64,000 nucleotides of DNA from an uncultured bacterium (GTDB lineage: Bacteria; Patescibacteriota; Patescibacteriia; Patescibacteriales; UBA12465), in contig CAJAVM010000025.1 in NCBI GenBank assembly GCA_903945435.1, positions 705-64,704 on the forward strand. The letters run 5' to 3'. The stretch's first letter is position 1. Each line of letters begins with the position of its first letter. Below the pieces are notes generated by a model that was not told the origin of the DNA, ran no database searches, and saw only the letters and a list, made by a program, of their open reading frames with translations. This document shows positions 6,978-64,000 of the stretch, piece after piece. The translations under genes and the position numbers were made by a program.

Positions 6978-7982
6978 TTATTTTAAAATTTTTCTCACTT
7001 TTTTAGCTAAGACGTATAAATAATAGACTAATGATTTAAATGGGATATCAAACACGCCTGGATAACTACGTTCTTCCCCGCCAAAGCCTAATTTAAATCT
7101 TGTTACACCTGGCCATTTTTTTCCATCAATCCCATAAAAATCATAAATTTTAAAACCATCAATACGAGCTTGCCTAATTATTTCCCATTGCAATAAATAA
7201 GGTGCCATAATATTTCTAAACTCATTATCACTCGCTCCATGGAGATAAGTCGCTTTTCCGCTAAAATAGCAAACAACCGCCGCCGCAATTTTTTTACCCT
7301 CGTACTGTGCAAAAAATAATTTTATAAATCCTTGATTATCATTTCCGTTTCCAACTAAGTTCTGATAATGTTCTGTATCATGAATTCTAAAACTATCGCG
7401 CGCTCCAGTGAGCTCCATTAAACGGATAAATTCCGAAAAATCTTTTTCACCTCCCTCAATGATGTTAACCCGCTTTTTCTTAGCTAAATTAATATTATAA
7501 CGAGTCTTTTGATGCATCTCCGTTAACAGCTCCTCTTCGGTCTTTTGTAAATTTAAAACTAAAGTTTTTTTAGGTTGAATATCAGAAGCACAAATAAATT
7601 TCGCATCTTCCCAAAAATTATTTAATTTTTGTGCTGGTTCAATTCTTAAAAAAACCGCTTGCTTATCTATTTTTTTAAGTGCTAAAACAAGAGCATTAAA
7701 AACCTGATTTATTGTTTCAGCTGATAATCCTAATTTAAATATCGGACTACGACCAGCATACCAATATACAAATCGGCCGCCTAATGATTTCTTAGTCAAA
7801 CAAATTAAGCCTAAAATATTTTGCTCCTCCTCAACAACTGCTAAATATTTAATAGTCTTTTTTTCTTTAATTAAAATACTAGCCCACTCCGAACTACTCA
7901 AAAATTCCGATCCCGATTCCCCTGGATTAGAAACTATAAAATTGGTCAATATTTTATTATCGTTTATTTCAATTATTTTCAT
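6978..7982 (-). CDS. FemAB-family peptidyltransferase for peptidoglycan interpeptide bridge formation.
   Basis: APYLLQWEIIRQARIDGFKIYDFYGI and overall FemAB-like length. I prefer the ATG at 7982 (MKIIEIN) because the 8006 start overlaps the pilin terminator. Confidence 0.7.
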   Translation of the reverse strand: MKIIEINDNKILTNFIVSNPGESGSEFLSSSEWASILIKEKKTIKYLAVVEEEQNILGLICLTKKSLGGRFVYWYAGRSPIFKLGLSAETINQVFNALVLALKKIDKQAVFLRIEPAQKLNNFWEDAKFICASDIQPKKTLVLNLQKTEEELLTEMHQKTRYNINLAKKKRVNIIEGGEKDFSEFIRLMELTGARDSFRIHDTEHYQNLVGNGNDNQGFIKLFFAQYEGKKIAAAVVCYFSGKATYLHGASDNEFRNIMAPYLLQWEIIRQARIDGFKIYDFYGIDGKKWPGVTRFKLGFGGEERSYPGVFDIPFKSLVYYLYVLAKKVRKILK

Positions 7983-54992: not shown

Positions 54993-56738
54993 TTATTTCT
55001 TTCTTACATTTACGGAATTCTCTCTAGCCTGATTGATTTGTTGTCTTACTTCCGCTTCTACATTATTTTCTTGAGCTATTTTTAAAATATTTTTCTCTAA
55101 ATCTTTTTTATAAGTCTCAACCTTTTGGCTAGCATATTCTATACCGAATCTTGTTATCCCAGTTGGGCCAAATAATTGACCAAGCATGACCGTAAAGGCG
55201 TCTTTAGGTATAAATCTTGGTTTCCAAACTATTCTTTCCTCAAAAGTTGTATTTTTATCATAAAATGCAATACCTAAAGCACTATTATAATATAACGTTC
55301 TTTGTACTGAATCTGGATGAAACCACCCCATTTGATCAGCAGCCTGAACTATTTTTCCAGAAATATTTTTAGGTGGGTATAAATCTGGCGTAAACTCATT
55401 ACTTTGAAAATCATGACAAAGTATGGCATCTTCTATAAATGGCATAAGACTATTCAGCCCCAATTTATCACAAAATATTTTTGCCCTTTCAGCGCTAAGT
55501 ATATGATGAAATTTCTGCTCCTCGGCAATAACTCCGCCCTGTTCATTAAATCTTCCGGAATCATGAAAAATTGCAGCAATTTCAACTATTAATTTTACAG
55601 ACTCCATAGCATTTTTCTCATCAACTTGCATCCCCTCTCTTAAGAGTTCTTTGTTTTCAACGCTATTTAAATTATTTATTAATTTTAGACATGCTAATCT
55701 AACTTGGTTTCCATGAATAAATCCATGATGATTATCATTCAAAAAGACTTTTAACCAGTCTTTATTGCCAAAACATTTTAACAATATATTTTTAAATTCA
55801 TTCTCTCTATTCTCAATATCAAACAATAAATTTTGAGCATTCTTTTTTTTAATAGAAAAATTATATATTCCCACGCCCACCAAGGCAAAGAAGGCTCCAA
55901 CTAAAAATAAAACTGATAATTTTTCCGATAAAAAATAATAAGCCCACACAAAAGTTGCAAACGGTTGAATATACAAAACCATTGAGGCCATAACAGGAGT
56001 AGATTTTTTTACGATAATTTGGCTTATAAGATAATAAACAGCCGTACTAAAAATAGCTACAAATACTAGGGCGGCGTATGCGTTTATTGAAACGCCGTAC
56101 CACCAAGTCGGTTCTCTCAAGAAATCAAAAATTGAAAGAAAAAATAATAAAATAGTGGTGGTAAAAATAAAATAATTGTTAATTTCTAAAGATGAATACT
56201 GGGAGTGAAATTGTTTTGATAATACCCAATATAAAGAAATCGACAACATGGCACAAACAATGATTAAATTACCACCGATAGTACTTCCTCCATTATTATT
56301 GGAAATCAGGGGTAATAAGACAACTATTATCGTCCCCACAAAACCAACTACTATGCCAATAATTTTATTGACCCCGAACCGTTCTTTTAAATAATAAAAA
56401 GACAACAAAGCGGAAACTATGGGCACGGCGGTATAAATCATTTGGCTGATGTTGGCCGTTGTATACTTTATGCCATATGCAAATAACACAACATTGGCCG
56501 AAGCTAATAGAGATAAGAAAATGATTTTATAATCTTTTCGTTTAAAGGTTGGTAAGCATTTCAAAGAGAACGGAAGTAAAACAACAGAAGCAATGAAAAA
56601 CCTTAAAAAAGTAAAACTAAAAGACGGAATTTCTTTTAAAGCTATTTTACCAAAAACACCAGCGCCTCCACCAAGAATGGCCGCAAATATTATTAAAAAA
56701 AATATTAATAATTTATTTGAGTGTGCTTTATTATTCAT
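54993..56738 (-). CDS. Fusion protein with an N-terminal EamA/DMT 10-TM transporter and a C-terminal HD-domain phosphohydrolase.
   Basis: Residues ~1-295 carry two EamA-like halves. Residues ~330-581 contain HGFIHGNQV ... AAIFHDSGR ... ILCHDF, an H..HD..D pattern. Confidence 0.65.
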   Translation of the reverse strand: MNNKAHSNKLLIFFLIIFAAILGGGAGVFGKIALKEIPSFSFTFLRFFIASVVLLPFSLKCLPTFKRKDYKIIFLSLLASANVVLFAYGIKYTTANISQMIYTAVPIVSALLSFYYLKERFGVNKIIGIVVGFVGTIIVVLLPLISNNNGGSTIGGNLIIVCAMLSISLYWVLSKQFHSQYSSLEINNYFIFTTTILLFFLSIFDFLREPTWWYGVSINAYAALVFVAIFSTAVYYLISQIIVKKSTPVMASMVLYIQPFATFVWAYYFLSEKLSVLFLVGAFFALVGVGIYNFSIKKKNAQNLLFDIENRENEFKNILLKCFGNKDWLKVFLNDNHHGFIHGNQVRLACLKLINNLNSVENKELLREGMQVDEKNAMESVKLIVEIAAIFHDSGRFNEQGGVIAEEQKFHHILSAERAKIFCDKLGLNSLMPFIEDAILCHDFQSNEFTPDLYPPKNISGKIVQAADQMGWFHPDSVQRTLYYNSALGIAFYDKNTTFEERIVWKPRFIPKDAFTVMLGQLFGPTGITRFGIEYASQKVETYKKDLEKNILKIAQENNVEAEVRQQINQARENSVNVRKK

Positions 56739-59635: not shown

Positions 59636-60511
59636 TTAATTTACAACTAACAAGAAAACGCCACCAAGAATAACAATAGTCGCAAGAATTTTTTTCACAA
59701 TATCTTTTTCACCAAAAAATCTTTCCCCAACAAAGACGTTAAATAAGGATGATAATCGATAAACGGCTATTATCAAACCGATGCTACCAGCAATTTTAAC
59801 TGCGGAAACATATAAATAACGATGAGCAACTGTAAGCAAAGAGATAAGCACAATTATTTTCCAGAACTTAAGAATGCTTGTTTTTAATTCTGGAAATAAA
59901 TTAGGTTTAACATTAACAAAAATTAAATAATTAAAAGCGACAAAGATTTGAATAATCGCTAAATAAGCCAAGGAATTCACCCCTAAGCCAGAGAGCATGG
60001 CCCTATCGAATACCGCGCCTAATCCGCCAAGCACAAGACAAAGACCAATATAAAGAACGTATCTTTTTCTTCCCTTTCTGAATATGCCACTACTAGTTTT
60101 AAAATTTTGAAATTCTAAAAACATAATACCAGCAACCATCAAAAATAATCCGGCAATTTGAAAAATATTCAATTTTTCTCCTAAAATAAAAAACGCTAAC
60201 AAAGAAACAACTAGTGGCAAGAGTGCTAAAATTGGAGCGACTTCACTAATTGCACTATGTTTTATAGCTTTAAAAATCAGCAATGAAGTAACGGTTGATA
60301 ATAAAGAGATAGCATAGATTAGCCCTAATATAGACCAACTTATTTGTGATAAATCAGCAAAGAAAATAAATGGAGCTAGAACAATAGCGTTACCGAAGGC
60401 AAACATAGCCGCAAAATTGAAAGTACGAGCTTCGCTTAAAGTTCTTTTTTCTAAAATTGTTTCAAAAACAATAAAAAAAACCGCAGTAATAACTAATAGG
60501 AACCAAATCAT
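59636..60511 (-). CDS. EamA-family (DMT) transporter.
   Basis: 10 TM segments in two EamA-like halves. Length 291 aa. Confidence 0.7.
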   Translation of the reverse strand: MIWFLLVITAVFFIVFETILEKRTLSEARTFNFAAMFAFGNAIVLAPFIFFADLSQISWSILGLIYAISLLSTVTSLLIFKAIKHSAISEVAPILALLPLVVSLLAFFILGEKLNIFQIAGLFLMVAGIMFLEFQNFKTSSGIFRKGRKRYVLYIGLCLVLGGLGAVFDRAMLSGLGVNSLAYLAIIQIFVAFNYLIFVNVKPNLFPELKTSILKFWKIIVLISLLTVAHRYLYVSAVKIAGSIGLIIAVYRLSSLFNVFVGERFFGEKDIVKKILATIVILGGVFLLVVN

Positions 60512-60649: not shown

Positions 60650-60680
60650 ATAAAAGACCTTTAAAAATAGGTCTTTTATC
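60650..60680 (-). terminator. Hairpin terminator downstream of the beta-helix surface protein gene.
   Basis: AAAGACCT-ttaaaaat-AGGTCTTT at 60653-60676, with T-rich flanks. Confidence 0.55.
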
Positions 60681-60697
60681 TGTATTTTATAACCAGA

Positions 60698-63600
60698 CTA
60701 ATTGATTTCGGCAACTTCTATTTGCCTAATATTTTCGTTAGAAATGCCCAGCGCCAAATCACGCATCATTTGATAGGCATTATCTGGATGACCAAGGTAA
60801 TAGAGTTTTAAGTCGACTGGATTAACATAATAAGCCTCCCCGTTTCTTTCGACTGCTAAGAAAATGCGACCCGATAAATTATTTGGAGCTTTAGTAGCTA
60901 AAAACTTATCAAGATTATCATTACTGATTCCTAAACCAAATTTACGCATTAAATTAAAAGCATCACCAGCGCGCCCCATAAAATACTTTTGTTTAGACAA
61001 TGGCTCTAAATACCAGGCTTGACCTTTTTCTTCTATTTGAAGAAGGATACGGCCATTAAGACGGTTGGTTAATTTGACATTAATATTTTTAATTAGAGAT
61101 CTTTCTCCGTCCGTCACTTCTTTCATATTTAAGGCGTCTAACAATACAGTTCCTTTTATATCTACGTCTTCCAGAGATTTAATAGCAATCTCCGCTCTAT
61201 TAATATATATATCCGTAAAAGTGACTCTGATATCATTTATACCATCATTATCGAGGTCGATTCTTCTGTTTTCTCCTATTTTTAAAGACAATGTTTGAGG
61301 TTCGGAATGAAAATTTAGCGTAATGATTTTAGAAAATAAATCTAAATTAACTATCTGAAAATGATGTTCATTTAAATGCCAATGATTTGAACTTTCTGGA
61401 GCTTTAAATCCAGCTTGAGAATTTATATAAGCTAGTATATTAACCCCGCTACTACTGATTGGCATTATATCAATAGAGCTATTCATCGGAATCACAGCAT
61501 CAAAGACGCCATCACCAATGGCTGCTGGTAAAGAAACGGCGTTATTAGAATAATTATTCTCTTCATTAATAGCAAAATTTGCTATAAAATTTAAATTTGT
61601 AACAACATTATTGTCTACTCTATTAACAGACGTAGCCCCGTCAGACCACCCAATAAAATGATAATTATCGTCAGGGATTGCTGTTACTTCCGAGCCACTA
61701 CCGCCACTAGCAATTACTTGAGTTGACGAGCCCGTAATAGAACCAAATGAGTTAGCACTATATTCTAATGTATAATAAATAATCGGAGCCATTGGGGTCA
61801 CGCTATTAGATGCGGTTGATGAAGTTGAGGTTCCTACAGCATTTGTCGCAGTTACGGTAAATGTATATGACGTACCATTTGTTAATCCTGTTATTAAATG
61901 GGACAATCCTGTTTCTCCGGCATTAATATCAACCCCACCTGATGGCATTGAGGTAACGGTATAACCAGTAATAGAACTTCCCCCCATCTGATGATGGCGC
62001 GGTAAATGTAACAGTCGCCTGAGTATTACCCGCTGTAGCGGTGCCAATATTGGGGGCGACGGGTTCGCTGGTAATGAAGATTGCACCAATGTAAGAACCA
62101 TTTTCACCAGACACTGCTAAGGATTTATTTATTGGGGTAAAACCAGTTTTAAAATATGATAAAGATGAAGTAGAATTATAACCAGCTGTTAAGGTTTCTC
62201 CAAACACATTTCCATTTCTCTTCATCATTTCAGACACTAAATGATCGGCTGTTCCATTCCCACCAAGAGAAGCATCATAGGTAGTTGCAAGTCTAGTTTT
62301 ATCGAAAAATTGAGGATTACCAGCCTGATCGTGCGCCCCAAACCCAGCATCTCCTTCTATTTTGCCTGTTATCAATATTCCCTGATATTTAGTAAGGGCT
62401 GTTCCTGTATCAGGGTAAAACCAAGTGTTATCAATATGATCAATAGTATCAATAGTAGATCGAGAATCTTTATAAGCGATAGATGTACCGACATATCTTG
62501 CACCAACAAGATTATTTTTGATAATCACAGCGCCGCCAGTATGTTGAGTAGTTTCTCCCGCCCAAACTAAATTAGCGACCGTATCTTTGAGATAACTTGT
62601 ATTATTAATCACATTTACAAAACCCGAATTAGGAGATGGCGCACCACCACCACCTCCACCAGAAACACCTATATTAACCGGTGTACCGTTATTTATAAAA
62701 ATATTATTTAAAATATCAACAGGAACATAATTCAAATTTAGAACATCAGCATCTCCATCTGCCATATCAAAAACATTATTTCTTATAATTGTTTTAGGCA
62801 AATCAGCGGCATAAGCTCCAGTAAACATGATTGCATGAGTATTATAAGGAATGCCAATAAAAAAATTATCATATATTTCAAGACCGCCGCTAGTATCTAA
62901 TAATTGTCCATTTACAGAACCAGCGCTAGCATCGGCATAAAATACATTGTTATATATTTTAAATGATCTCTGGGCTACCGGGACAGACGCTAAATAAAAA
63001 TGATCCAATGAGCTATTTTTAAAAATATTATTTTTTACTTCTCGATTATTTCCAACCGAAGTTACATAAACTTTACCCATGGTTGGCTGAGAAAAAACAT
63101 TTCCGTCGAATAAAAAATTACCCAAAGTACTAAGGACGGATGTTCTGATTGTTAAATTAGCATTATAGCCAGAAAGCGTGGATGTTATATTTCTGAAATC
63201 ACTATTTGTAATTTTTAAATCATTAGCAGAATTAGCATATTGTCCAATATCAATATAGCCCGTTCCATTAAAATAACAGTGGTCAATATTCAAACTTGAA
63301 TAAGCGTTGGAATCCCAAGCATTTTTCATAGAGATAGCCGTATAGCCAGTAATATCAAAATTAACGTATTGCCAATTGACTTGCTGAACTGGTGGAAGAG
63401 TTGGAGCCGCTGCTACTATATTTCCAACACCATGAACCGATGCTCTATTTCCAGCCGTACCATATATATTCCAAACAGCCATAGAATAACCCGAACCACT
63501 CGTACCAAAAACATAATTAGCCGCTGTTACGCTACTACCAGCATTCTGTTCGAAAACTCCTACCCTATCCCAAGTAAAATTGCTAGTAACGGTAAGCGTT

Positions 63601-63886
63601 CTATTTGTATCCAAGATTAAAGTGTCTTTTTTTAAAACTGTTCCGCCAGCACCTAATTTAATACTATTTACTGTGAATTTTGATCAATCGTAATTGTAAC
63701 TGCAGCATCAACCACTATCTGAACATCATCTGACGCTCCAGGTACTACGCCGCCAGTCCAAGTAGAAGTTGCTGACCAATTACCAGATTGAGCGGCAGTA
63801 ATAGTTGCCGCATCAGCTTCTTTAGAAAAGGATAAAAATGAAATAACAAAAATGAAGAAAATAATAAATTGCTTATATTTATTCAT
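60698..63886 (-). pseudogene. Secreted modular surface protein split into three frames by two homopolymer frame disruptions. Domains are a signal peptide, a parallel beta-helix, FN3, a B-repeat, the shared ~124-aa module, and 2x the C-terminal repeat.
   Basis: Three frames join up: 63886..63668 (signal peptide MNKYKQFIIFFIFVISFLSFSKEADA), 63683..61929 (beta-helix with NN[IV]F repeats) and 62107..60698. They make sense across T4 at 63678-63681 and C6 at 61980-61985. The second junction splits a canonical FN3 start, TFTAPSSDGG|SSITGYTVTS. Confidence 0.7.
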
Positions 63887-63916
63887 TCCATTATTAATAA
63901 AAAATAAATCATATAT

Positions 63917-63981
63917 TTCTGCGTGTGGCGCAGATTGTATTTCTGCGTACAATGCATTCCATGTTCTGCGTCCCACGCAGA
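63917..63981. repeat. Three direct TTCTGCGT repeats spaced 23-24 bp apart, two of them palindromic, upstream of the beta-helix gene.
   Basis: TTCTGCGT occurs at 63917, 63941 and 63964. The palindromes are TCTGCG-tgtgg-CGCAGA (63918-63934) and TCTGCGT-ccc-ACGCAGA (63965-63981). The segment is GC-rich against an AT-rich background. Confidence 0.7.
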
Positions 63982-64000
63982 TTTTAGCAACCAGCACAAA

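Follow-up and report, generated by a model that had tools for sequence, protein, structure and literature searches.

A probable young pseudogene of a large modular surface protein, fixed in a freshwater Patescibacteria population

Introduction

Young bacterial pseudogenes carry one-base insertions or deletions (indels) relative to intact orthologues and show no further decay; a second lesion may fall in the already dead gene, and a low ratio of nonsynonymous to synonymous divergence (dN/dS) is inherited from the functional past. Here we describe a gene that has all of these properties. It spans 3.2 kb (60698–63886, with the minus strand as coding strand) of a 64,000-nt stretch of DNA from an uncultured bacterium of the Patescibacteriota (GenBank assembly GCA_903945435.1, contig CAJAVM010000025.1, positions 705 to 64,704), referred to below as the window, and it would encode a large, presumably surface-located protein if two one-base frame changes, at site 1 and site 2, were repaired. 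Unlike the described cases, its lesions are fixed over several environmental samples of uncultured Patescibacteria, and its orthologues appear to have been broken independently in two further lineages.

A second kind of system with which this locus must be compared is formed by the phase-variable surface genes of Campylobacter, Neisseria and Haemophilus. In these, as here, the open reading frame (ORF) of a surface protein is frameshifted at an internal poly-G run, but the run at our locus is only a G6, it shows no length polymorphism, and the second lesion lies outside any repeat.

The encoded protein in turn recalls two groups of described proteins. The right-handed beta-helix (RHBH) enzymes and adhesins, such as PL6 chondroitinase B, GH110 and the HK620 and P22 tailspikes, have the fold that is predicted for the N-terminal ~400–600 aa of the window protein, which differs from them in having neither a Pfam Beta_helix nor an NCBIfam match and no identified catalytic residues. 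Surface proteins with FN3 (PF00041) and InlB B-repeat (PF18998) domains share both of these domains with the repaired window protein, where they exceed the Pfam thresholds; here, however, they are joined to a beta-helix and a C-terminal module, neither of which has been classified.

Results

Read from its start ATG at 63886, the gene encodes MNKYKQF...AVTITIDQNSQ in frame 0, with the conserved motif AATITAAQSGNWSATSTWTGGVVPGASDDVQIVVDAAVTITIDQ behind the signal peptide, and then meets a TAA; this first segment can be aligned to the N-termini of the homologues P0002–P0006 and P0049. The frame of the second segment is open directly past a TGA at 63686–63684 and up to another TGA at 61931–61929, the last 20 codons before which are out of frame. 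In the third segment frame 0 is open again as far as the TAG at 60700–60698. On the coding strand an A4 run lies at 63681–63678 and a G6 run at 61985–61980, and a stop-free ORF of 1062 codons results if a base is inserted near 63677 (site 1) and another is taken out at 61980–61985 (site 2). The three-segment anatomy and the positions of the two runs are as described in the original prediction, which had been made from the sequence alone. The two shifts offset one another, which places segments 1 and 3 in one frame, but this shared frame is without functional meaning because frame 0 hits a stop three codons past site 1. The homologues P0001–P0006 are collinear with the repaired protein over both sites and are 44–64% identical to it in the alignment.

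The history of site 1 is established by the closest relative, P0049 (contig L019), which was found in an exhaustive search of 1.84 billion cluster representatives and is 84–86% identical to the repaired window protein (HMMER/BLASTP; 87% over aligned codons). It reads, in frame, ACG ATT GAT CAA AAT GTT ACA GTA AAT AGT ATT AAA (T I D Q N V T V N S I K), where the window has ACG ATT GAT CAA AAT TC ACA GTA AAT AGT ATT AAA. As the relative carries the identical A4 run in frame and then GTT, it is not the run that is damaged but the G behind it that is lost; the aligned codons indicate that A4 (CAA AAT) is the ancestral in-frame length and that in the window the first base of a Val codon is missing. 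The simplest history is a change from GTC to TC, GTC being found at this place in L008. The homologues in L006, L007 and L008 read GAT (A/G)Tx ACA here, and more distant relatives all have D-x-D-(I/V)-T-V. The frame is thereby lost at codon 70, and with the stop three codons on, the product has 72 residues.

This bears on the claim that the gene is broken at exactly two homopolymers, which fits site 2, as an expansion from G5 to G6, but does not fit site 1. The extra A (A5) that had been proposed there does restore the ORF, with Q-K-F at the junction, yet three further substitutions would be needed with it, and it does not reflect the mutation that took place.

At site 2 the proposed shortening to G5 is plausible and gives DGGSS, although the same protein results if one A of the neighbouring AA is dropped instead. 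By homology with the FN3 domains of the family, the ancestral reading would be D-G-G-S-S, and the position of the site within the FN3 motif is as in P0004 (FSAPSSNGGSAISYY). We consider expansion of the G run to be a more likely mutation than the gain of an A. The 64-kb window holds only three runs of six G or C, site 2 included, and the other two G6 runs lie in frame within intact genes, where they encode Gly-Gly. No close relative spanning site 2 was found, and the homology search across the site was swamped by FN3 proteins. We also observe that the GAT GGG junction creates an out-of-frame ATG (61985–61987) right at the G run; gene callers take this ATG at 61987 as the start of a 429-aa distal ORF, so that in public annotations the fragment resembles a normal gene.

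Both lesions recur wherever the gene was recovered. Contigs were gathered by exact-sequence look-up of the neighbouring and fragment proteins in public assemblies; these comprised MEGAHIT (k141) assemblies, SPAdes-style scaffolds (labelled BUCK21-1_SAMEA6872898, -900, -901, -902, -903 and -936) and Logan k=31 contigs (runs ERR4220615, ERR4220617, ERR4221522 and ERR4225396), from at least six BioSamples. Site 1 is identical in 10 of the 10 contigs that span it (L001, L002, L003 and L012–L018) and site 2 in 11 of 11 (L001–L005 and L012–L017), and in these consensus sequences no variation in tract length was seen for either A4 or G6, a comparison that the original prediction had proposed and to which the relative in L019 added the ancestral A4. 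The contigs differ from the window by zero or one single-nucleotide polymorphism (SNP) over 3.5 kb. The 561-aa fragment is present on 18 contigs (13+5) and the 429/416-aa fragment on 25 (18+7). Judging from the record names, the samples appear to belong to the dataset of Buck et al. 2021 and would thus be Illumina NovaSeq data; that study used Illumina NovaSeq 2x150 sequencing and MEGAHIT (PMC8121793). Six hypothetical intact or half-repaired versions of the protein were absent from 15 billion proteins in an exact look-up, for which identity is required. Fifty-seven further ORFs of 70 aa or more were taken as genes in the window (88% of which they cover), and none shows an obvious break, defined as adjacent same-strand overlapping ORFs or an in-frame stop. 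Two lesions in a single gene are expected under relaxed selection, whereas random error gives no such expectation.

The inactivation appears to be recent. When the window gene and its L019 orthologue are compared in repaired form over 516 codons, dN is 0.072, dS 0.82 and dN/dS 0.088, which establishes strong purifying selection through almost all of the divergence between the two. Further, the 1062 repaired codons hold no additional stop. About 4.0% of the single-base substitutions in the repaired ORF would create one. With 20 neutral substitutions the chance that no stop arises would be 0.44, and with 50 it would fall to 0.13, which limits neutral decay since inactivation to at most ~1–1.5% divergence. 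A single extra neutral indel without stops fits a young pseudogene, and we agree with the original prediction that this is not an old, decayed one. No signal peptide follows either lesion, and by eye no Shine-Dalgarno-like sequence is evident before the internal starts TTG 63614 and ATG 61987.

In the repaired protein the FN3 domain scores 39.7 bits and the InlB B-repeat 38.1 bits, against Pfam gathering cut-offs of 25 and 23.6, respectively. Pfam has no match in the first 600 or the last 280 residues, and NCBIfam and PHROGs likewise assigned neither the beta-helix nor the C-terminal module to a family. The 561-aa middle ORF was modelled with AlphaFold2, with six homologues in the input. The model has a predicted template modelling score (pTM) of 0.68 and a mean predicted local distance difference test score (pLDDT) of 61.5, with 10-residue block means of 60–89 across residues 1–310; it is all-beta, with short strands recurring periodically over residues 1–400. 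Almost all of the 50 best PDB matches from Foldseek are RHBH proteins, among them GH110, PL6 chondroitinase B and the HK620 and P22 tailspikes, but every match scores weakly (E >= 4e-3; TM-scores 0.13–0.33). From this model, a beta-helix is a reasonable prediction for the N-terminal ~600 aa as a fold class, not as a family assignment.

The family to which the gene belongs is small, with seven matches at E <= 1e-30 in the 1.84 billion representatives, and most of the weaker matches cover only the FN3-like tail of the query. Among GTDB species representatives no relative was found by a single-protein scan or a scan with alignment A1, and a metagenome scan gave only two distant loci. In a related metagenome-assembled genome (L009), whose PurF and PilB fall in the same 90%-identity clusters, the gene is absent from the syntenic neighbourhood. 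Intact relatives are the 1125-aa protein P0003 (L007), which has a T9SS-type sorting domain, P0004 and P0006, a single 1503-aa ORF in L006 that is intact only if TGA is a sense codon, and L008, where TGA likewise is a sense codon and two full copies are followed by a partial third that is cut by the end of the locus. Regarding the genetic code, we observe that four TGA-separated ORFs in L006 (1–4510) fuse into the 1503 aa under table 25, that L008 (1587–9143) has no long ORF under table 11, and that P0002 and P0005 show W at a conserved G of the family, having been translated with code 4 though the organism looks like code 25.

Other relatives are broken. The gene in L019, intact at site 1, carries a 2-nt insertion, a TG duplication, after codon 362 (TAT GTG TAG C where TAT GTA GCT is expected; lesion at 1388–1405), and the next frame, ADLPKTIIRNNVFD..., runs to the end of the contig. 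In L020 and L021 (64% identity) the ORF ends ...YDNLFMGQS after ~366 codons at a 1182-bp insertion sequence (IS), which encodes a DDE_Tnp_1 transposase and has perfect 19-nt terminal inverted repeats GGCTTTGTTGAATAATTCC (L020 7102–7120 and 8265–8283). The IS lies at 7102–8283 in L020 and 4687–4716 in L021, and both contigs terminate at or within it. With the window included, three of ~10 loci are thus disrupted, each by a different lesion.

Upstream of the gene the assemblies disagree: all of them break within ~1 kb of it and differ in what they contain there. A type A flank, with 60–70% GC, phage-like small ORFs and a pentapeptide-repeat gene, is found in the window, L001, L013, L015 and a contig from JGI, and splits from type B at 26 nt 5' of the ATG. 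Type B (L002, L014, L016, L018 and others; 10 contigs read) is AT-rich, and its contigs always end within 110 nt. Type C (L003 and L012) has ~42% GC and brings the first 46 codons of a PotB-like permease, behind a PotA-like C-terminus, to a junction at -13/-18; between its two contigs there are 3 SNPs in the 182 nt of flank, against none in 4.3 kb of the gene. The flanks occupy positions 1–1050 of L001, 1–36 of L002, 1–85 of L014, 1–165 of L003 and 1–570 of L012. Both frameshifts are present with all three types, each of which was seen in at least two assemblies, Logan k=31 contigs included. Given this recurrence, the junctions seem to be present in the reads, and assembly chimeras, which we considered because of the differing GC, are an unlikely source of the upstream joins. 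Promoter scans of the flanks were uninformative.

Several observations concern the GC-rich stretch itself. In L001, which continues the window past 64000, the 60–70% GC DNA (1–1000) adjoins a 33% GC genome. This stretch may have been inserted from a foreign source, or the join may be chimeric. A tandem array of pentapeptide repeats (1–150) matches pentapeptide-repeat genes of Caulobacter and Ralstonia phages, a 91-aa ORF matches phrog_1273 (E 2.6e-17), and three ACGCAGAA motifs lie in a 110-nt spacer.

Two neighbouring genes of the window, encoding 1625 and 1328 aa, had been described as intact and paralog-like. Both are indeed intact ORFs, but what they share with the broken gene (41% identity over 473 aa for the 1328-aa protein and 49% over 171 aa for the 1625-aa protein) is limited to the FN3, B-repeat and C-terminal modules, and neither has the beta-helix; on this alignment evidence they are best described as module-sharing relatives and not whole-gene paralogues. 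In the searches made here the C-terminal module was found only in the other large secreted proteins of the genome and in a few metagenomic relatives. Copies lie in three large secreted proteins of the genome (60698–61549, 41065–42420 and 33347–33900 of the window), and in another metagenome (L022) the module follows an RCC1-repeat protein. It has no Pfam family and may serve as a cell-surface anchoring module. Apart from these genes, we note an EamA-family ORF of 581 aa (54993–56738) that is roughly twice as long as EamA transporters usually are and has two Pfam-matched stretches, and which may be a fusion or duplication; a separate EamA gene of 291 aa lies at 59636–60511.

Table 1. Features of the broken gene and its surroundings in the window
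Feature	Position	Strand	Description
Type A flank start	63912–64000		GC-rich; other assemblies diverge here, 26 nt upstream of the ATG (type C at -13/-18)
Segment 1	63668–63886	-	Signal peptide and conserved N-terminal motif (AATITAAQSGNWSATSTWTGGVVPGA...TITIDQN); premature TAA at 63670–63668
Site 1	63675–63681	-	One-base deletion; the absent base, between 63677 and 63676, is the G of a Val codon (GTx)
Segment 2	61929–63683	-	Frame +2 relative to the ATG; predicted beta-helix of ~560 codons, then start of FN3
FN3 domain	61808–62036	-	Repaired residues 618–693, split by site 2; PF00041, E 5.6e-10
Site 2	61980–61985	-	One-base insertion at the G6 run (GAT GGG GGG AAG); G5, or one A instead of the next AA, restores DGGSSITGYTVTS
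InlB B-repeat (Flg_new_2)	61565–61774	-	Repaired residues 705–774; PF18998, E 1.5e-9
C-terminal module	60698–61549	-	~280 aa; two internal ~50-aa repeats (GRILLQIEEKGQAWYLEP... / GRIFLAVERNGEAYYVNP...); stop TAG at 60700–60698
Terminator-like hairpin	60650–60679	-	3' of the stop codon

Discussion

We find that the locus is very probably a genuine young pseudogene of a large secreted surface protein in a freshwater Patescibacteria population, with two fixed one-base mutations. Very recent inactivation was one of three explanations offered at the outset, together with phase variation and assembly error, and it is the one that agrees with lesions that are real and fixed, with orthologues that are intact at both positions and with the low dN/dS. 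The ancestor would have been a protein of ~1062 aa consisting of a signal peptide, a right-handed beta-helix of ~600 aa, an FN3 domain, an InlB B-repeat and a lineage-specific C-terminal module. One mutation would have removed the G of the Val codon at codon 70, just 3' of the A4 run, and the other would have added one base at a G5 run, or an adjacent A, in the FN3 domain. As to their order, we infer that whichever hit came first removed selection, that the second would then have been neutral, and that both would subsequently have been fixed in the population.

Several points weigh against this conclusion. Loss of function is inferred, and the ancestral state at site 2 is read from distant FN3 homology only. 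A difference of a single residue would hide an intact allele from the exact look-up, and the first homology search missed even the window's own fragments, why the negative result for intact alleles is a weak one. All contigs come from one study and probably from one lake system, and 'independent' here means samples and assemblies of one population. Finally, counts made on consensus sequences leave room for a minority ON subpopulation with G5.

Among the alternatives, slipped-strand phase variation, in which frequent changes in the length of G6 (and A4) would toggle the surface protein, is attractive since the gene encodes a surface protein, is otherwise intact and has one of its lesions in one of the few G/C6 runs of the window, while orthologues in other lineages are likewise in an OFF state. 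Nevertheless, we consider it very improbable. The tract lengths are invariant over all spanning contigs, and both runs are shorter than the cut-offs for phase-variable homopolymers used by PhasomeIt, at least 7 for G/C and at least 10 for A/T (PMC6321876). At site 1 no tract has changed, the A4 being in frame in L019; at site 2 the change may map to the tract, where either a G5 or a single A restores the frame. Longer runs of the same gene (A7 at 63633, T7 at 62865, and an A6 and a T6) stay in frame. The OFF lesions of the relatives, a TG duplication and an IS insertion, are not reversible, and to produce the protein from the window allele both lesions would have to revert jointly.

It could also be suggested that the split products are used, with the 561-aa beta-helix and/or the 429-aa fragment with FN3, B-repeat and C-terminal module functioning separately. 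Both ORFs are long, open and annotated by gene callers, and L022 encodes a stand-alone protein of 381 aa with the B-repeat and C-terminal module. The fragments, however, lack a signal peptide and show by eye no evident Shine-Dalgarno-like sequence, the 561-aa ORF finishes with its 20 out-of-frame residues, and those relatives that could be examined have signal peptide and beta-helix in one continuous ORF, which makes this option very improbable.

That the real gene is intact and was broken by assembly or consensus errors at homopolymers is a natural suspicion for two sites that touch short runs in a gene close to a contig end, but we hold it to be highly improbable and regard an artefact as excluded for practical purposes. 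Three assemblers and six samples would all have had to yield the same error, and twice in the same gene, on what appears to be a platform (Illumina NovaSeq 2x150) without systematic indel error at A4 or G6. Moreover, site 1 is outside the run, and the longer runs of the gene and all other window ORFs taken as genes are unaffected.

Programmed recoding, by a -1 shift at site 1 and a +1 shift at GGG_GGG_A that would together yield the full-length protein, is barely credible: the shifts do cancel, and a tRNA-Gly could slip by +1 on GGG GGG A, but site 1 has no X XXY YYZ heptamer, the 88–90 nt downstream fold like shuffled sequence (z -0.02 and +0.55), Rfam gave no element and only one sub-threshold chance match, and neither frameshift is conserved in any orthologue, conservation being the hallmark of programmed frameshifts. 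Reading TGA as a sense codon was also considered and rejected, as read-through explains neither frame change. The window has no in-frame TGA in ~18,800 codons; its 57 ORFs end in TAA (47), TAG (8) and TGA (2), and read-through of the two TGA-terminated genes would add just 6–8 codons.

We return to the young pseudogene and to its relatives. The disruption of three of ~10 loci gives a modest hint of recurrent independent loss in the family, which we treat as a lead and not as a finding; the sample is small, and L019 is a single 1.9-kb JGI contig whose sequencing platform is not known. Because these loci are broken despite a dN/dS of 0.09, and because the window gene has three upstream forms, one of them phage-like with 60–70% GC, it might be proposed, although we think it unlikely, that the protein belongs to a class of surface proteins that fluctuating selection repeatedly removes, perhaps owing to a role in phage reception or host attachment, and that the locus is not a random pseudogene but a hotspot of irreversible contingency-like switching and of foreign-DNA capture.

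In conclusion, we see here an ordinary, recent and population-fixed pseudogene of a modular surface protein. Three ORFs that are publicly annotated as separate hypothetical proteins (72–114, 561 and 416–429 aa) would accordingly be one dead gene. We point out that the homopolymers at this locus are no signature of error, and that if frameshifts were corrected automatically at the A4 run, the junction residues QKF would be introduced, which never existed. The locus offers a clean and datable case in which a natural population has lost a gene, within an uncultured lineage with reduced genomes, and if recurrent loss holds with more genomes, this would suggest that particular surface proteins are selected against in Patescibacteria.

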